From Escherichia phage K1ind1, in sequence record NC_041897.1: a stretch of DNA of 42,292 nucleotides. One strand, given 5' to 3'. This document shows, piece after piece, positions 4,320 to 39,585 of this stretch. Under the pieces are notes generated by a model. It did not search any database. It saw nothing but the letters and a program-made list of their open reading frames with translations, and was not told the DNA's origin. Every line of letters begins with the position of its first letter. Position 1 is the first letter of the stretch. The position numbers and the translations under genes were made by a program.

Positions 4320-4323
4320 ACTG

Positions 4324-4345
4324 AAGCCCCGAAAGGGGCTTTTTA
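4324..4345 (+). terminator. rho-independent terminator
   Basis: AGCCCC-GAAA-GGGGCT hairpin followed by TTTTT. Confidence 0.6.
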
Positions 4346-4614
4346 GTGCCTGTGATTATTCCAGTTATTCCACTCAATTGTAAATGTTGGAATAAACTAT
4401 TCGAATAGTCGACTTTTCACCAAAAATGTGCTAAGCTCCACCTGAGCTTGTGAAGTATGAACAAGCGACCGCGGCGCGGCAGGTAACGGAGCCGGACGTT
4501 AAGTCCGAGTGTAGTTACGCTGACGCGTTCGGAAGGGCCATACTCTATTGCTTGTGTAAAAAGTAACTGGTTTACTGAGATTACGCCGTTTCTATGTTTA
4601 AATGATAAGTACTA

Positions 4615-4641
4615 GCGCCCCGCTTTAAGGCGGGGCTTTAC
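4615..4641 (+). terminator. terminator-like hairpin
   Basis: GCCCCGC-TTTAAG-GCGGGGC stem-loop followed by TTT; ends a 300-bp non-coding stretch. Confidence 0.45.
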
Positions 4642-4660
4642 TTATCGAGAAAGGGGAAAC

Positions 4661-5047
4661 ATGAATCTTAAAGCAACTGTCGTAGCGGGAGCATGTTTCA
4701 TCATCCTGACTTACGCACACGGCATCTACCAGTATCGCATCGGCTGGAACGAAGGCCGGGCCAATCTCGTTTCACAGCAACAGCAGAAAGCACAGGCTGA
4801 GTTAGCGAAGAAAACACAACGGCAGCAGCAGGATGAATCAAAGGCCGCGGCTGCTGACAGCGAAGGCAAGACGAAATCAGAGGTGATTACCCGTGAAGTC
4901 GTTAAGTACATTAAAACGCCTGGTCGCAGCGTGTGCACTTTTGACCCTGAGCGCGTGCAGCTCAAGTCCCGCGCCGTCGCAAACGCCAATTCCATCCCCG
5001 GATATGACGATGATGCAGCCGCCGTGCAAACTGGCCCCGCCAAGTAG
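4661..5047 (+). CDS. i-spanin (Rz-like)
   Basis: 128 aa; N-terminal transmembrane segment (VVAGACFIILTYAHGIY) then Q/A/K-rich coiled-coil; overlapped by a lipoprotein ORF in the +1 frame. Confidence 0.6.
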   Translation: MNLKATVVAGACFIILTYAHGIYQYRIGWNEGRANLVSQQQQKAQAELAKKTQRQQQDESKAAAADSEGKTKSEVITREVVKYIKTPGRSVCTFDPERVQLKSRAVANANSIPGYDDDAAAVQTGPAK

Positions 5048-13584: not shown

Positions 13585-13776
13585 TCACTTCTCGTTAACA
13601 TTCGAGTTGCACGCCCAGATTAAAATAAAGACCCACGGCAGCAGCGCCCAGCCAAGAAACAGATTAGCCATGAATATCGCTAACTTCGCTTTATGGTTAC
13701 GGAAGTACGCAACCAGGAAAGGCGCAAAATAAACGAGAAGTGCAAACAGAATTAAGGAAACTGGTAAACTTGACAT
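13585..13776 (-). CDS. small membrane protein, superinfection-immunity (Imm) family-like
   Basis: 63 aa from second ATG (GGAGG RBS); two hydrophobic helices flanking RNHKAKLAIF...GWALLPW, a pattern resembling the Imm superinfection family. Confidence 0.5.
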   Translation of the reverse strand: MSSLPVSLILFALLVYFAPFLVAYFRNHKAKLAIFMANLFLGWALLPWVFILIWACNSNVNEK

Positions 13777-13806
13777 TTTAAATCCCTCCATTGTTGGTGT
13801 AAGTGA

Positions 13807-13835
13807 ATAGTACCCTATTATATTGGGGTGTGCAA
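13807..13835 (-). promoter_or_regulatory. sigma70-like promoter TTGCAC-17-TACTAT with embedded AATAG-N4-CTATT palindrome (13806-13819)
   Basis: minus-strand reading CTTGCACACCCCAATATAATAGGGTACTATTCAC is nearly identical to the plus-strand cassette at 35342; lies about 30 nt upstream of the Imm-like gene. Confidence 0.5.
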
Positions 13836-31958: not shown

Positions 31959-32174
31959 ATGCAACCATCTGAACTAGGCATCCGTGTAGAACAGCGCCGT
32001 AAAGAACTCGGCATTTCCCAACGCCGTCTGGCTGTCCTGGCCGGTGTTTCCCAGGGCGCGATTAACCAGCTGGCACTCGGTGTAACTAAGGACGTCCGCC
32101 CAGCGACGCTGTTTAAACTGGCGGAAGTGCTGCAAGTAGATGCCAAGTGGCTGGCGTTCGGTGAAGGGGCTTAA
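31959..32174 (+). CDS. HTH XRE-family (Cro/CI-like) transcriptional regulator
   Basis: 71 aa; RRKELGISQRRLAVLAGVSQGAINQL helix-turn-helix; AAGGAG RBS; followed by terminator. Confidence 0.7.
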   Translation: MQPSELGIRVEQRRKELGISQRRLAVLAGVSQGAINQLALGVTKDVRPATLFKLAEVLQVDAKWLAFGEGA

Positions 32175-32191: not shown

Positions 32192-34450
32192 CTATTCTAA
32201 ATCCTCCTCTGTCACTGTTAACAGTTCATTCGGTTCGTATATCGTCTTCGGTCTTAATCTGTCCCCCATCTTTTCAGGTATCCGGTATGTGCCTGGTATA
32301 ACTTCACCGTTAACATCGCACCCGAGCATCAACTCACCGTCTTTCAGCATCTTCTCAAGATGGTGGTTGGTGATGGCGTGGTCCCCCGAGTTCGCCACTA
32401 TCTGCCGTTGGGTAAAACCTCGTCCGGTGTCGTCGGACTGTTGCAGGTCTTCCAGCGCGGCGAGTATTGATTCCTTACGCCCTTCATCCTTCCCGCGTTT
32501 TACAGCATTCTTTACGTTTTCTTTACCTTCTTTAGTTAACCCTTCTTCCCGCTCCTTCTCCTCGTCAGTTTTGAACGGCTCGAAGCCCCACGGCATCAGC
32601 ACAAGCGCCTTGTGCGGCTCAGGCAGATCGAGGTTTACGATTGTGCCGTATTCCTCTGTGCTACCGAGGAACTCAACCGCACGGTATTCTTTCGGAGGCG
32701 GGGCTTCACGGAACTGTACCGACTCCAGAACCATGCCAACCGTTTTCTGTTGAGGCCCATGCTTAAATTTCGAGTGGTATACGTTTATCTGGCGGTCGGT
32801 AGCGCGCTCAATTGTCAGCTCCACATCAACACCTGCATACAGCGCCCCGCTACCACGGGCTTTCTTTCCACCCTTAGGCGTATGGTGGACGACACCCACA
32901 GCGGCTTTAGTCGCATCACGTACTTCTTTCAGGATGGCGATAACTTTACCCATACCGATTGCCGTTGATGAGCTGTTCTCGTCGAACTTATCAATCGTCA
33001 GGGCCAGCGTCTGGTTGAGGGTATCGAACGCGACCATACCAATAGGCTCGTCCCCTGCAGCTTCACGCATCCTGCGGATTAGCGCGGGGATTTTTTTATC
33101 ACCATGCGCGGCGAGCACCTCACCCATATCAATGACATGTACGTAATCTTTACCTTCCTCGCCGTATTTAGCCGCGAGCGCGTCAATACGTGTGCGTGTA
33201 GCTGCGCCTCCCTCACCGTCGATATAGAAATGGTGGCAACGCTGGGTATCCGCCCCGGCAAACCGGTATCCGGCGGCGCTCAGGTACATCATCCCCAGCG
33301 TATAGAACGATTTGTACGTACCAGATTCCCCGACAATATCCCAGATGCAATCAGACGGCATGTACCCTTCAACGACGAAATCGGCCTTTACCGGTTCTGG
33401 TAACTCGTCCTCCTCTGAGTCCTCGTCGTCTTCCAGGTCATCCAGGCTGCATGAGACAGATTCACGCGCGCCCCAGCCGATAGCCTCGGCCACTTCACTG
33501 AACGGCAGTCCGGTCGCATCACACGCGTATTTCCACACTTCTTTCGGGGGCATTCCTTCGGTCGCGGCAATGTCGGTGTCGTGAATCATGGTTACGTTCG
33601 GCGCTTCGTATCCCTCGCGCGGGAAACATAACAGGAAGTCGTCCGGGCGTGGTGTCGGGTCGCTGTAGTTTTCTGCGTGTTCTGGCGTAGCTGGCATCTT
33701 AAGGCCACGCGGCGTCATGATGCCGCCGTACTCGAATGCCAGTGCTTCAAACGCATCTGTAAACGCGGTGCGCAGTTCTTCCGGTATCTGGTAATCAGAT
33801 GCGCTGCTGATGTCAACGGCTGGGACGCCTTCCAGTAACTCATCAGGGTCAATCAGGTCGTTGCGGCGCGACCAGATAACGGTAGCGCCGACAGGAGGCA
33901 AGTACATCGGCTGCGAAAGAGTGAACCCGCTGCGGTCGGCGCCCATGCCTTTGAAGAAGTGCTCCAGCAATCCATGACGAACACGAATGATGTCACCGCC
34001 CTCAACCGTTCGGGCCAGCGGCATGACGACGCGAAAGCGCGGGGCTTCGTCTGTGTGTGATGCCGTGGTATAGAGGCACATCGCCCGCCGGCTGCGCTTA
34101 ACCAGGCGCACAGCTTCCTGATACTCTTCCAGGGTTGCACTGTCAAAGTCCAGGTACGCCAGCGACGATTTGCTTACAGACGCGTCGCAGCGATAGAAAA
34201 AGCCTTTACGCGCTTGCTTAAAGTCACCTGTTTCCGGGTCTTTTACGGTGCTGTGCGTAGAGTCGCACGCAGCGGTGATGTAACCAGGCGCGGTCTTCGG
34301 GTTAATTCCGTCACGGACAGCATCAAGCGGCTGGATTAAATCTTTCAGGTCGTCCAGCGTTGCCGTGTGTGTGGTTCTGACGTTTATATCCTTTTTCTCG
34401 GCCCGCGCGTTGCGACGAGACCACGAGTAGGATAAAATTACATCGGACAT
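32192..34450 (-). CDS. DNA primase / replicative helicase-like protein (primase N-terminal region plus RecA-like ATPase)
   Basis: 752 aa; central Walker A GESGTYKS with downstream Walker B-like hydrophobic-DE; largest replication protein. Confidence 0.6.
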   Translation of the reverse strand: MSDVILSYSWSRRNARAEKKDINVRTTHTATLDDLKDLIQPLDAVRDGINPKTAPGYITAACDSTHSTVKDPETGDFKQARKGFFYRCDASVSKSSLAYLDFDSATLEEYQEAVRLVKRSRRAMCLYTTASHTDEAPRFRVVMPLARTVEGGDIIRVRHGLLEHFFKGMGADRSGFTLSQPMYLPPVGATVIWSRRNDLIDPDELLEGVPAVDISSASDYQIPEELRTAFTDAFEALAFEYGGIMTPRGLKMPATPEHAENYSDPTPRPDDFLLCFPREGYEAPNVTMIHDTDIAATEGMPPKEVWKYACDATGLPFSEVAEAIGWGARESVSCSLDDLEDDEDSEEDELPEPVKADFVVEGYMPSDCIWDIVGESGTYKSFYTLGMMYLSAAGYRFAGADTQRCHHFYIDGEGGAATRTRIDALAAKYGEEGKDYVHVIDMGEVLAAHGDKKIPALIRRMREAAGDEPIGMVAFDTLNQTLALTIDKFDENSSSTAIGMGKVIAILKEVRDATKAAVGVVHHTPKGGKKARGSGALYAGVDVELTIERATDRQINVYHSKFKHGPQQKTVGMVLESVQFREAPPPKEYRAVEFLGSTEEYGTIVNLDLPEPHKALVLMPWGFEPFKTDEEKEREEGLTKEGKENVKNAVKRGKDEGRKESILAALEDLQQSDDTGRGFTQRQIVANSGDHAITNHHLEKMLKDGELMLGCDVNGEVIPGTYRIPEKMGDRLRPKTIYEPNELLTVTEEDLE

Positions 34451-34508
34451 GTTATATTTCCTTCAGCAAGTAATTTAGCCTCGGCGTTCACCGCGTCGGG
34501 GCTTTCTT

Positions 34509-34742
34509 TTATTCCAGGTCTTCTAAAGTAGCGGTCATTCCGCGAACTTCGGCAACAGCACTATATTTCCCGCCAACATTTTTCACGACACCAGATTTAA
34601 CCAGTACCTTCAACGACCCTTCAATAATGGCGGAACTATAGTACCTAAAATAACTACGGCGCAAGTCCATAACGCTGCACGACCCTTTTTTACGGGTTAA
34701 TGAAACGACTGCCGTAAATACGCGGGACTGGAACTCGGTCAT
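34509..34742 (-). CDS. hypothetical protein
   Basis: 77 aa; coupled downstream of AlpA-like gene. Confidence 0.35.
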   Translation of the reverse strand: MTEFQSRVFTAVVSLTRKKGSCSVMDLRRSYFRYYSSAIIEGSLKVLVKSGVVKNVGGKYSAVAEVRGMTATLEDLE

Positions 34743-34909
34743 TTTACATTCTCCTTAATCCACGCTTCCACTTTCTCCGGGTCGAAAGTACCCGGCTGCC
34801 GGCGGCCCATAATACGGATACAACAATCCGGGAACTTCCCACTCTTTAACCAGTTATTCAGCGTGCGACGGGTAACCCCAATACGCTCGGCTACTTCATT
34901 CTGTGTCAT
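34739..34909 (-). CDS. AlpA/excisionase-family HTH DNA-binding protein
   Basis: about 56 aa from ATG 34909; MTQNEVAERIGVTRRTLNNWLKSGKFP ... EKVEAWI pattern typical of AlpA-like regulators. Confidence 0.5.
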   Translation of the reverse strand: MTQNEVAERIGVTRRTLNNWLKSGKFPDCCIRIMGRRQPGTFDPEKVEAWIKENVK

Positions 34910-34941
34910 TCTCAAACCCCCATTATCAGTTAACGAAACCA

Positions 34942-34970
34942 AGTATACATTGCGAATAATGGGAAATCAA
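34942..34970 (-). promoter_or_regulatory. sigma70-like promoter TTGATT-17-TATACT
   Basis: read on minus strand about 30 nt upstream of AlpA-like ATG. Confidence 0.4.
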
Positions 34971-35343
34971 ACATAATCGCACCTATTGACATTATGGAAA
35001 TCTTCGTTTAAGGTGCTTCTGTATCTTAGTTACTTTGATTCTTGTTCACCTTGTAAAACCCGCCGAAAACGAGCGCCCAACGCGAAGTGTTAGGCGGCAG
35101 TTTACTGAACATTCGAATTATCGTAACTTTCCTTCCTAAGTATCTCCGGTTGCCATGGGCAAGCTCTATTCCCATCGGCGGAATATATCTTAAGTATCTG
35201 ATTTTCTTAAAGTGCCGTAGATTCGCAACCGTAAAAATGTAACGATTATTGGGCAGGCTTAGGGCCTGCCCTTTAGTTACCAAGTAATAAGAATAAAGGC
35301 ACAACCCTACCTGAAGAATCACAACGGCAACGTAACTAATCTC

Positions 35344-35372
35344 TTGCACACCCCAACATAATAGGATACTAT
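35344..35372 (+). promoter_or_regulatory. sigma70-like promoter TTGCAC-17-TACTAT with AATAG-N4-CTATT palindrome (35360-35373)
   Basis: conserved cassette CTTGCACACCCCAACATAATAGGATACTATTCAC; GAGGAG RBS and ATG 35407 downstream. Confidence 0.5.
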
Positions 35373-35406
35373 TCACTTATCGAAACGAGACAGAGGAGTG
35401 AGGGTT

Positions 35407-35589
35407 ATGTTTAAGAATGGTCAGTTGGTGAAAACAAAGCGCAGCCGGCAACACGTAATAGTTACCAAAGACGAGGATGAATATGGTGTTGTCGCCGTAT
35501 TTAGCCTTATACGGAGGAAACATGGTTATGTTCGTCACGATAATTTAGAACTCATCGGCAACAATTTTAAATTCAAAGGGGCGAAGTGA
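35407..35589 (+). CDS. hypothetical early protein
   Basis: 60 aa from ATG 35407; first gene after promoter. Confidence 0.4.
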   Translation: MFKNGQLVKTKRSRQHVIVTKDEDEYGVVAVFSLIRRKHGYVRHDNLELIGNNFKFKGAK

Positions 35590-35777
35590 TGGGAGAATTA
35601 ATTTACGACGTATACGTCGACGGGGTCATAACAGAGACAACAAGTAATAAAGATTACGCAATAAAGCGGTATGTGTATTATGCCGCAGTGGTAGGAAGGA
35701 TGGTAGAAGTGCGGGAGCAAACGGCATCGAATCATGATGCTTGTGCCGACGACTCTGAGGGAGGTCGCCGTGAATAA
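35589..35777 (+). CDS. hypothetical early protein
   Basis: 62 aa; ATG overlaps upstream stop (GTGATG). Confidence 0.35.
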   Translation: MGELIYDVYVDGVITETTSNKDYAIKRYVYYAAVVGRMVEVREQTASNHDACADDSEGGRRE

Positions 35778-35812
35778 GTTTATTTTATCGCCGCTTATGT
35801 GGAGCACGAGTT

Positions 35813-36007
35813 ATGGGGGTTGATATGAGCCCGTATAACGAATTCCGCTTACGCCGTCTGGTTGGGGGTATGCGCGCCGCCGAGTTCGGTGTTGAATGCC
35901 GGGAAAAGGAGGAATACACCCCCTGGAAGTCGTGGCATTTGGCTCATGCCAAGTATTGTGAGTACAAGTTAAACAGTTTCCTTAAGCACCACGGAGTTGA
36001 GTTATGA
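35813..36007 (+). CDS. hypothetical early protein
   Basis: 64 aa ORF. Confidence 0.35.
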   Translation: MGVDMSPYNEFRLRRLVGGMRAAEFGVECREKEEYTPWKSWHLAHAKYCEYKLNSFLKHHGVEL

Positions 36008-39238: not shown

Positions 39239-39367
39239 TGGACGAATACGAAGGCGTTTAGTAAACTTACATCCACGCTGTTTGTGCCTGCATACTAAGC
39301 CCCGGTAAACCCGAAGCAGCAGCCCAAGCGGTGGAGACTGCGTAGGGTTCAGGGGCTTATGCCCGAA

Positions 39368-39396
39368 ACCCGGACCGCGAATCCGGGTTTTATTTT
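39368..39396 (+). terminator. rho-independent terminator
   Basis: ACCCGGA-CCGCGAA-TCCGGGT hairpin followed by TTTTATTTT. Confidence 0.6.
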
Positions 39397-39402
39397 ACCA
39401 AT

Positions 39403-39430
39403 TGACACCTGAGACTAATCCGACGATACT
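39403..39430 (+). promoter_or_regulatory. sigma70-like promoter TTGACA-16-GATACT
   Basis: consensus -35 hexamer read directly; followed 40 nt later by strong terminator. Confidence 0.45.
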
Positions 39431-39469
39431 TAAATCACCTCCTGTTCCATCCCTCTGCTCTCCAGTTTT

Positions 39470-39503
39470 ATCCCGGCCCTTACCCAGCCGGGATTTTTTT
39501 TAT
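39470..39503 (+). terminator. strong rho-independent terminator
   Basis: ATCCCGGC-loop-GCCGGGAT hairpin followed by T8. Confidence 0.65.
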
Positions 39504-39523
39504 CTGTTTTCTGTAATGACTAG

Positions 39524-39552
39524 TTGACTATTACCTTAGACCCTATTATATT
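39524..39552 (+). promoter_or_regulatory. sigma70-like promoter TTGACT-17-TATATT
   Basis: near-consensus hexamers; about 30 nt upstream of ATG 39586. Confidence 0.5.
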
Positions 39553-39585
39553 TACTCCATCGACAACGAGAACGGAGTAGAGAAA

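Follow-up and report, generated by a model that had tools for sequence, protein, structure and literature searches.

A conserved structured element, candidate leader or non-coding RNA, of the early control region in a virulent Kagunavirus

The divergent gap and its promoters

The DNA under study, in the following called the window, is the 42,292-nucleotide (nt) sequence NC_041897.1 of Escherichia phage K1ind1, a Kagunavirus of the subfamily Guernseyvirinae. It harbours a gap (34910-35406) between the leftward operon of a helix-turn-helix (HTH) gene and a primase-helicase gene on one side and the rightward early genes on the other, and it serves this virulent phage as early control region. An earlier note made from the sequence alone had described it as a divergent control region with a leftward promoter, a rightward promoter cassette, a strong hairpin and a short direct repeat, and had suggested a replication origin and/or a regulatory switch. 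Hairpin and repeat are parts of one conserved structured element of about 280 nt, which was overlooked at that time and which lies directly downstream of a predicted promoter, P1, conserved among the relatives of this phage.

The leftward operon starts with an HTH_17 (AlpA/excisionase-like) gene (34739-34909, minus strand; Pfam HTH_17, E 2e-7), followed by a 77-aa gene (34509-34742, minus strand) and the gene of a 752-aa primase-helicase (32192-34450, minus strand), the helicase domain of which is matched by Pfam AAA_25 (RepA-like). Since the HTH gene begins at ATG 34909 and not at TTG 34942, as indicated by the 171-nt coding sequence (CDS) of annotated relatives, the gap comprises 497 bp. It is hence, as had been claimed, the largest intergenic stretch of the genome, and even slightly larger than assumed. 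In the annotated genome of E. coli phage P AB-2017 (KY295898), which is 99.6% identical in the gap region, the 497-bp gap is followed in size by gaps of 357, 346 and 341 bp. On its right side the first early gene (35407-35589, plus strand), of which homologous CDS are annotated in relatives, is preceded by a Shine-Dalgarno sequence, GAGGAG, read together with the ATG at 35407 directly from the sequence (35393-35409, plus strand). Sequence related to the gap region occurs in 447 phage records, mainly of E. coli Kagunaviruses and Salmonella Jerseyviruses, and in 293 of these at least 80% of the interval originally described is covered.

Three promoters of the sigma-70 type, not two, are predicted within the gap on the basis of consensus and conservation. 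The leftward promoter P_L (34942-34970, minus strand), found by promoter scan, consists of TTGATT (-35, 34965-34970), a 17-nt spacer and TATACT (-10, 34942-34947), both hexamers falling into invariant columns of an alignment of 20 relatives. Back-to-back with it, at a distance of 15 bp and pointing to the right, lies P1 (34986-35014, plus strand), which the earlier note had missed and which was read from the sequence as TTGACA (34986-34991), a 17-nt spacer and TAAGGT (35009-35014), with a predicted transcription start at about 35021. The third, P2 (35344-35372, plus strand), is the early promoter cassette with TTGCAC, a 17-nt spacer and TACTAT. The leftward promoter and the rightward cassette noticed earlier are thus both present and conserved, and the description as a divergent control region stands, with the conserved pair P_L and P1 as well as P2 placed between the replication operon and the early genes.

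The CACCTATTGAC and TAAG.T motifs of P1 are invariant in all 20-38 aligned relatives. The strongest argument for this predicted promoter is, however, comparative: an equivalent promoter is found at the same place in front of every unrelated version of the element despite the unrelated sequence downstream, namely TTGACA..TAAAAT in K1H, TTGACT-17-TAAGCT in type C and a promoter with a TATAAT -10 hexamer in type D.

Promoters of the P2 type are also found elsewhere. One copy (TTGCACACCCCAATATAATAGGGTACTAT, two mismatches) is present at 13807-13835 on the minus strand with the same initial transcribed sequence, TTCACTTA; it is located in another divergent gap, before a superinfection-immunity (Imm_superinfect) gene (13585-13791) and a metallophosphatase gene. 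Related loci carry additional P2 copies 1-1.8 kb downstream of P2.

Fold and conservation of the element

The untranslated structured element, a candidate leader or non-coding RNA, extends from 35021 to 35302 on the plus strand and is recognised by its constant length, its fold z score and the want of a conserved open reading frame (ORF). Every Kagunavirus (K), Jerseyvirus (J) or E-type relative has it at a length of 282-292 nt. Stretches of about 265-323 nt folded around the element yield z scores, relative to shuffles, of -3.0 for the plus and -2.2 for the minus strand. Single-sequence folds and group-wise consensus folds produce the same architecture, which comprises, in this order, domain I, a linker with the first copy of the repeat, domain II, a small hairpin with the second copy, and domain III.

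That the gap encodes a small protein, be it the 116-aa ORF on the minus strand or a micro-ORF, is very improbable. The former (35026-35376, GTG start), already described as low-complexity, does exist, and some records annotate CDS in the gap. Furthermore, a frame of 12 codons from ATG 35155 to TAA 35191 (35155-35193), reading MGKLYSHRRNIS in the analysed genome, is kept together with its stop in the K, J and E types and displays several third-position changes. Against this stands that within the element no ORF of at least 30 aa is conserved in position or frame across the relatives, that 1-nt insertions and deletions are frequent and that the CDS annotated in the gap vary from record to record; the minus-strand ORF is spurious, as most relatives lack it or have it in truncated form. 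The 12-codon frame has no Shine-Dalgarno sequence before it and in the majority of relatives CTG or TTG as its start codon; it is absent in K1H and probably not translated. Public records place conflicting "hypothetical protein" CDS inside the non-coding element, the loci with annotation problems, those of wrong gene names (see below) included, being L002 (1645-1860), L004 (1591-1737), L009 (1472-2542), L015 (1482-1874) and L003 (1285-1455).

Domain I (35028-35128, plus strand) is a long hairpin formed by the helices AGUUAC/GUAACU, UGAUUC/GAAUUA and UGUUCA/UGAACA, a conserved CCUU bulge, the helix GUAAA/UUUAC and a hypervariable apical hairpin, which reads CCGCC...GGCGG in the analysed genome. 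Its single-sequence fold attains a z score of -4.6, while its identity to six Jerseyviruses is 48-66%. A covariance model seeded from 18 Jerseyvirus and E-type sequences only (alignment A3 with a hand-checked structure) recovers the analysed genome (E 2e-4) as well as all K-type copies at full length (E 2e-4 to 2e-7). In the resulting alignment, A4, 96.3% of the domain I pair cells hold standard pairs compared with 25-47% when the 3' partners are slid by one to three columns, and compensatory changes on both sides are seen in 18 of the 40 pairs. The covariation score of 0.317, as opposed to 0.127 in shuffles, was reached by none of 500 shuffles, and part of the compensation is visible already in a plain MAFFT alignment. 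Thus, the helix UGAUUC/GAAUUA of the K type is replaced by UUAAGUUU/AAACUUAA in the J type, GUUCA/UGAAC and GUUUCA/UGAAAC differ by a paired insertion, and one helix position is occupied by GUAAA/UUUAC, GUAAG/CUUAC, GUAAU/AUUAC or GUGAG/CUUAC. Within Kagunavirus alone three different pair types occur at one position, and at least five unrelated apical hairpin sequences preserve a stem at the same place. In the sequences compared, this shows that it is the pairing rather than the sequence of domain I which is conserved. Cells with G.U pairs outnumber those with A.C pairs (77 versus 13, at about five positions), so that the minus strand pairs in 91.0% of the cells, less than the plus strand; this bias may be read as modest support for the P1-sense strand. 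A terminator-like hairpin on the minus strand (35096->35074) was dismissed as it is confined to the apical variant of the analysed genome and has nothing to terminate.

These data also bear on the simplest view of the gap, according to which it contains only ordinary promoters, a terminator and spacer, any structure being a by-product of relatedness and mosaic recombination. The covariation comes from few deep lineages, related sequences devoid of structure can exceed a shuffle control, and the high identity of domain III (see below) could reflect recent lateral transfer; moreover, hairpin and repeat taken individually are within chance. Yet the control with slid partners, in which the relatedness is kept, abolishes most of the pairing, independent versions of the apical hairpin keep their stem, three different pair types are seen at one position within Kagunavirus, the length of the element is constant, and in two genera and at least 293 records a non-coding stretch surpasses the genes on its flanks in conservation. 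We consider this view improbable.

The unpaired linker motif UCCUAAGUAUCU, which corresponds to repeat copy 1, and the pyrimidine tract 5' of it (35134-35145, plus strand) fall into invariant columns in the relatives; K1H contains a related motif, UUAGUAUCU. Domain II (35149-35182, plus strand) is tentative: GUUGCC/GGCGG may enclose UGGG/CCCA, or a short hairpin UUGCC-AUG-GGCAA may form. The group-wise RNAalifold solutions differ among the groups and only one-sided changes from G-C to G.U are found, so a domain II structure is weakly supported. A small hairpin follows (UUAAG/CUUAA with the loop UAUCUGAUUUU; 35188-35210, plus strand), which accommodates repeat copy 2 at 35188-35199. It contains the motif (A/U)CUGA(U/A), shared by versions K/J, E, K1H, C and 22664BS2 as well as by a second cassette at 4.4 kb described below, while type D has ACUGU.

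Domain III (35212-35302, plus strand) is a long irregular hairpin with the helices GUGCC/GGCAC, AUUC/GAAU and GUAAC/GUUAC and the apical stem GGGCAGGC/GCCUGCCC (35251-35271), after which UUUAGUU follows. Its fold z score is -3.6 in the analysed genome. In E-type Jerseyviruses and K1H-type Kagunaviruses it is replaced by modules whose interior is unalignable to it but which adopt the same long-hairpin fold with UGCC/GGCA closure (z -4.7 and -4.5, respectively); the covariance model of domain III, R2, matches the E-type modules weakly, yet exactly at the expected places. A further 3' version, with a UUCG-capped tip, occurs in 22664BS2. Domain III is the conservation peak of the locus: the segment 35193-35342 is 86-98% identical to Jerseyviruses sharing this stretch (70% in two which are devoid of part of the spacer), compared with 80-90% for the HTH gene and 34-76% for the helicase.

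The hairpin noticed earlier is the apical stem of domain III, GGGCAGGC-TTAGG-GCCTGCCC followed by TTTAGTTACC; it is indeed present, at 35251-35271, which is 2-3 nt off the position reported for it. It comprises nine pairs, seven of them G-C, passes the scan for intrinsic terminators and is enclosed by conserved lower helices, its tail being interrupted after three U. The 9-bp direct repeat TAAGTATCT exists likewise, at 35137-35145 and 35191-35199, so that one of the positions originally given (35146) was wrong by nine; allowing for one mismatch, the repeat grows to 12 nt (TCCTAAGTATCT/TCTTAAGTATCT) at a spacing of 54. While copy 1 lies in the unpaired linker, copy 2 takes part in a stem and its loop. 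Each alone, hairpin and repeat are not significant but within chance expectation: we estimate about 0.4 repeats of a 9-mer in 460 nt by chance, and a scan of 34400-36000 found five terminator-like hairpins compared with 1.9 in shuffles (about 2.6-fold). Both were taken as real because of their conservation, the hairpin arms and the two repeat copies residing in invariant or nearly invariant columns of 20-38 relatives.

Downstream of domain III a conserved spacer (..GAAUCACAACGGCAACGUAACUA..; 35303-35343, plus strand) leads to P2. It retains 98% identity even in K1H, despite the unrelated element upstream of it there, and offers an alternative 3' partner (GAAUC, ACGGCA) to the 5' strand of domain III. 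This alternative pairing is seen in minimum free energy folds and represents the sole closing partner in K1H-type phages.

Module exchange, further cassettes and annotation

Comparison of the related loci reveals four mutually unrelated versions of the 5' domain (K/J, K1H, C and D) and four versions of the 3' domain (K/J, E, K1H and 22664BS2). Natural combinations of a 5' with a 3' version comprise K with K1H (locus L028), J with E, C with K1H and D with K/J, and tandem K/J and E modules are found in addition. Nearly all versions share a junction signature, (A/U)CUGA(U/A) followed by UGCCG(U/A)A, which in type D contains ACUGU, with P2 or a P2-like promoter coming next. The type of the element is uncoupled from that of the helicase, whose identity is 64-100% in phages with K/J elements, 82-87% in those with K, K1H, C or D elements and 30% in one case of type C. 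As judged from these combinations, the modules are exchanged between phages as self-contained units.

The tandem arrangement is found in Jerseyviruses of the Ent1/dunkel type, which carry two domain III modules, first K/J and then E type (L012 1880-2070; L082 140-330), the second being fused to a remnant of the P2 -35 hexamer. Within the region of about 1 kb annotated as "intergenic" in Ent1, a homologue of the first early gene has gone unannotated (ATGTTTAAAAGGGGTCAG.., L012 ~2047). In two Jerseyvirus genomes, horsemountain (L081, end of MT074482) and dunkel (L082, start of MT074432), the deposited sequence breaks inside the element, at the equivalents of about 35225 and 35185, respectively. 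Since the break points differ, they probably result from arbitrary opening of a circular assembly; the retrieved pieces of both genomes contain no terminal repeat and give no evidence of a physical end.

A peculiar relation exists between the two kinds of domain. The K1H 5' domain (L020 1731-1831) is hit by the domain III model not in sense but on the opposite strand (37 bits, with a rough E of 1e-6), and may be an inverted module. Domain I of the analysed genome gives a weak, boundary-exact match to the same model on the minus strand with a compensated closing helix. These matches render domain I suggestive of an inverted domain III copy, yet a plain alignment yields z 1.8-2.1, which is not significant, and the helix architectures differ.

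Such opposite-strand matches are among the observations from which a purely DNA-level element could be construed, in which palindromes and short repeats (GTWAC, GTATCT/AGATAC, GATTC/GAATC) would be double-stranded operators of the HTH proteins or single-strand hairpins extruded for the primase-helicase, similar to ssiA/ssiB of IncQ plasmids, transcription being incidental. The primary sequence of domain III, nearly invariant as it would be in a stretch recognised by protein, the RepA-like AAA_25 family of the helicase domain and the frequency of GTWAC, five copies within 308 nt as against one per 306 nt on genome average, would agree with it. The compensatory changes in domain I, however, point to conserved pairing instead of conserved sequence, the G.U bias favours the plus strand, the supposed inverted modules are not significantly similar in the plain comparison, there is no iteron array, and the conserved promoter before every version is left unexplained. 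We regard a DNA-level element as rather unlikely, if slightly less so than a gap of mere promoters and spacer. The five GTWAC copies span 35029-35336 (at 35029, 35123, 35239, 35276 and 35332), and four of them form the GUUAC/GUAAC helices of domains I and III; the motif is enriched across the whole genome (138 versus 93 expected), and a third copy near the 5' end permits an alternative 5' hairpin in Jerseyviruses.

The domain III model R2 furthermore detects a site at 4574-4667 (27 bits, E 2e-4) inside a 341-bp gap (4320-4660) of the long rightward gene block, which thereby turned out to contain a second cassette of promoter, structured RNA and terminator before the late genes (4411-4645, plus strand). 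Upstream of it, a terminator (4324-4341, plus strand) closes the preceding morphogenesis genes. The cassette begins with the predicted promoter TCGACT-17-TAAGCT (4411-4439, plus strand), continues with a structured stretch of about 170 nt (z -3.0) and ends with the scan-positive terminator GCCCCGC-TTTAAG-GCGGGGC followed by TTTACTTATC (4617-4646, plus strand); the next gene (4661-5047) starts about 15 nt past the terminator tail and is devoid of a promoter of its own. The structured stretch is homologous to the type C 5' domain, which in other Kagunaviruses sits at the P1 position, and the alignment of both displays compensatory changes as well as G.U pairs on the sense strand. Among 179 phage records the conservation of this gap is 94-99%, yet it is essentially unannotated.

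A third gap of 347 bp (39239-39585, plus strand), located after the endolysin gene, contains units resembling terminators, promoters and small RNAs. A GC-rich structured stretch ends in the canonical terminator CCCGGA..TCCGGG followed by TTTTATTTT (about 39370-39397). Next comes a promoter, TTGACA-17-GATACT (39402-39430), and a unit of about 65 nt which includes AUCACCUCCU and ends at the terminator CCCGGC..GCCGGG with a T run (about 39471-39499); a second promoter, TTGACT-17-TATATT, is found at 39524-39552. AUCACCUCCU is identical to the anti-Shine-Dalgarno end of 16S rRNA, and the unit 39402-39499 looks like a small RNA (sRNA) gene. From the 4.4-kb cassette and the third gap it follows that the genome punctuates rightward transcription with cassettes of promoter, structured RNA and terminator, a set to which the early-region element, by its sequence and arrangement, appears to belong.

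Rfam 15 contains no family that reaches its gathering threshold in the whole genome or in six related loci, the best sub-threshold matches being to the terminal hairpin only. In the E. coli genomes and plasmids searched, the element is absent, the sole match being the edge of P2 on a phage-like record of 44 kb. A literature search retrieved no paper describing an origin, a non-coding RNA or a promoter map for Guernseyvirinae; a paper on phage genome reduction, considered as a source on the group, was discarded as it concerns Skatevirus. The family, its modular build from two domains and its occurrence at two loci per genome appear to be undescribed so far. As a general kind, structured untranslated RNAs close to a promoter in the control region of a phage are known from the PE1 transcript of phage c2, from 6S/tR' of lambda and from put of HK022.

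Some observations concern the genes next to the gap. Just beyond the 3' end of the primase-helicase gene, on the strand opposite to the surrounding leftward genes, lies a Cro/CI-type HTH_3 gene (31959-32174, plus strand; 71 aa, E 1e-12) labelled as a DicA-like repressor in KY295898; it is carried by a phage considered strictly virulent. The record of SE-W112 mislabels the HTH gene as "terminase small subunit" and the primase-helicase as "DNA repair protein RAD51", and the 77-aa gene is named "UvsX-like" or "replication protein", depending on the record.

Transcription control, origin or small RNA

We favour the interpretation that the gap contains a P1-driven cassette for a structured leader or non-coding RNA which acts in cis at the level of RNA and transcription, and assign to it a probability of roughly 0.4. 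Host RNA polymerase would start at P1 (about 35021) and transcribe the element, whose RNA would form domain I on its 5' side and domain III on its 3' side, with conserved single-stranded motifs (UCCUAAGUAUCU, CUGAU) in the short part between them. Together with UUUAGUU, the GC-rich tip of the 3' hairpin could act as a leaky intrinsic terminator, termination at 35272-35280 giving rise to a structured RNA of about 260 nt. The amount of P1 transcription continuing into the early genes would be set by the cassette, through leaky termination or else through RNA-mediated read-through of the terminator, while P2 would supply early transcripts independent of read-through. The cassette at 4411-4645 would play this part for the late genes, where the downstream operon could be entered only by way of the leader and its terminator. 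The regulatory switch suggested earlier is plausible, while the promoter-driven structured RNA element behind it had gone unrecognised.

Two known systems provide precedents. The late region of lambda contains the promoter PR', an untranslated leader of about 200 nt, the 6S RNA, and the intrinsic terminator tR' upstream of a long gene block controlled by Q antitermination. This layout is exactly matched by the 4411-4645 cassette and loosely by P1, element and hairpin (34986-35280). A promoter, an untranslated leader and a terminator upstream of promoter-less genes are present at 4411-4645 and only partly in the early region, where, differently from lambda, a second promoter follows the element. 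The lambda 6S RNA is not known to have an extended conserved structure, whereas the structure of the element is conserved with covariation. The put RNAs of HK022 act in cis and cause processive antitermination; they comprise about 70 nt with two stem-loops, and their function depends on RNA folding. Like the elements studied here they are structured RNAs just downstream of phage promoters, present in more than one copy per genome and in sense orientation to the operons. They differ in size, the elements described here being 200-290 nt long with long irregular hairpins, and share no sequence similarity with them; for the elements described here, an effect on polymerase is putative.

Several points weigh against control of read-through by a P1 transcript. 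The -35 hexamer of P1 is perfect, but its -10 hexamer, while retaining the critical T, A and final T, matches the consensus at three of six positions only, because of which the consensus promoter scan skipped it. P2 makes read-through from P1 dispensable for early-gene expression. Termination at the tip of domain III is not a universally conserved function, because the E- and K1H-types do not possess a U-rich tail: the equivalent tips, GCACUUGCC..GGCAAGCGC in the E-type and GGGUGGGC..GCCCACCC in the K1H-type, are followed by UUACCUGA and ACUGCG, respectively. Besides, conservation is no lower 3' of the tip hairpin than within it. Alignment A4 had been fitted to the covariance model, its covariation stems from few deep lineages, and the covariation of domain III is not measurable (one compensatory pair) because this domain is near-invariant within its type. 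The opposite-strand match of the K1H 5' domain is odd for a function at the RNA level. Neither an antiterminator protein nor an RNA polymerase contact nor a qut site was identified, no search for a Q homologue having been made, and published RNA-seq (transcriptome sequencing) of a Kagunavirus reports genes only.

The same features could alternatively make up the gene of a trans-acting sRNA. Promoter, structured RNA and GC-rich hairpin with a U-rich tail follow one another in the order required for P1 and the domain III terminator to give a stable RNA of about 260 nt, whose conserved unpaired segments (UUCCUUCCUAAGUAUCU, UAUCUGAUUUU or domain III's 5' strand) would base-pair with mRNAs of the host or the phage, or serve as decoy for a host factor, for instance in the evasion of defence. 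Invariant single-stranded motifs, among them a pyrimidine-rich tract similar to an anti-Shine-Dalgarno sequence, would be in line with this, swappable versions would suggest diversifying selection, and the other promoter-to-terminator unit with AUCACCUCCU (39402-39499) indicates that the genome may encode sRNAs. Still, a search of the phage genome for complements of the linker matched only the linker itself, the U tail is of poor quality and does not occur in the E and K1H versions, and conservation continues beyond the hairpin. An sRNA gene is, therefore, an unlikely explanation, though less so than a DNA-level element.

Second in our ranking, if doubtful, is an origin of replication, the other role which the earlier note had suggested for the gap. 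Its classical signatures are absent. Neither the region nor the genome contains iterons; the two-copy 12-nt repeat is the only repeat of this sort in the region, and genome-wide there are no tandem or clustered repeats. P4-type iterons were dismissed as well, the octamer TGTTCACC being found once in the region and three times elsewhere, as expected by chance. The DnaA-box analysis which had been recommended gave no cluster in the region: allowing one mismatch, 36 boxes occur genome-wide as against 31 expected, and the one in the gap, with one mismatch (34951-34959), conforms to chance density. An extended AT-rich unwinding region is missing, the lowest GC content in 60-nt windows (0.33) being located at the promoters. 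The cumulative GC-skew minimum lies at about 35 kb but is uninformative on the origin because it coincides with the switch of gene orientation.

What stands from the proposal of an origin is the layout, which strikingly resembles the transcript-dependent origin of phage c2. In the c2-like lactococcal phages (Ceduovirus) the origin is a non-coding stretch between the first early promoter, PE1, and the second, PE2, located between divergent gene blocks, and PE1 produces a non-coding transcript considered essential; three types of origin are distinguished, which show no mutual similarity, are more than 90% conserved within a type and, when combined into chimeras, were reported to be non-functional (PMC7150918). 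The distance from the -10 hexamer of P1 to the -35 hexamer of P2 is 329 nt compared with 332 nt between those of EP1 and EP2 in c2, whose promoter positions were taken from the GenBank annotation. Both stretches are hence non-coding, lie in a divergent gap and have the first early promoter on one side and the second on the other, at a distance of about 330 nt. Both are devoid of an ORF or ribosome-binding site between these promoters and yield an untranslated transcript, which in the present case is predicted, and both exist as several types, unrelated to one another and highly conserved within each type. They share, however, no sequence or structural homology. Since the c2 transcript region displays no unusual folding (z -0.17 as opposed to -3.0 for the element), the resemblance is one of layout only. 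Moreover, the 5' and 3' domains of the element recombine freely while the c2 types are indivisible, and the analysed genome contains a related cassette in its late region. The c2 origin was demonstrated by plasmid replication with host functions alone; the phage analysed here possesses its own polymerase and primase-helicase, and the role of its element as origin is that of a candidate.

If the element were an origin of the c2 kind, the P1 RNA or its R-loop would prime replication or open the DNA for the phage polymerase I and primase-helicase. Comparable promoter-driven priming is known from the primary origin of T7 and from RNA II of ColE1. Such a promoter-driven untranslated RNA could explain the position of the element by the replication genes, and folding, which matters in RNA II, may matter here, too. 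The replication genes, encoding a family-A (polymerase-I-type) DNA polymerase and a primase-helicase, form a T7-like set. In contrast to ColE1 there is no conserved promoter for an antisense RNA similar to RNA I, a match of the minus-strand scan (35210->35182) having been rejected as it is not conserved in the relatives, and no AT-rich region follows the promoters. That the element adjoins the replication operon, occupies the largest non-coding gap between divergent gene blocks, has nearly the promoter distance of c2 and is found in a genome which reveals no origin of the iteron type elsewhere speaks for an origin. Against it stands the similar cassette at 4411-4645, whose 5' domain substitutes domain I in other phages and which would imply two origins. 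Furthermore, natural 5'/3' chimeras are common, whereas those of c2 are non-functional, neither an AT-rich unwinding region nor DnaA boxes are available, and the element type is uncoupled from the helicase type.

Returning to the preferred interpretation of a cis-acting leader or non-coding RNA, we very tentatively suggest, as a possibility somewhat less probable than that interpretation itself, that the Guernseyvirinae carry a new superfamily of modular, promoter-proximal structured RNAs, each built from a variable 5' hairpin, the conserved junction (A/U)CUGA...UGCCG and a long 3' hairpin and present at at least two loci per genome, early and late. These RNAs might act in cis on host RNA polymerase by put-like read-through and thereby provide a virulent phage devoid of its own RNA polymerase with its temporal programme, or the early copy might double as a transcript-primed origin.

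Kagunaviruses and Jerseyviruses are among the most frequently isolated phages of E. coli and Salmonella and are used in therapy, in biocontrol and as chassis of synthetic biology, while about 450 deposited genomes show either nothing or spurious CDS in the gap region. Being more conserved than its neighbours, showing clear covariation and lying behind a conserved putative promoter, the element very likely belongs to the essential machinery of these phages. Given its coordinates, a structure model and module swaps that occur naturally, the question of its function is directly testable. An RNA controlling read-through, if that is what it is, would represent a rare case in which a virulent phage governs transcription by RNA. 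Should it be a transcript-dependent origin instead, the c2 mechanism would be extended to phages of Gram-negative bacteria, and a cis element for the engineering and rebooting of their genomes would be defined.

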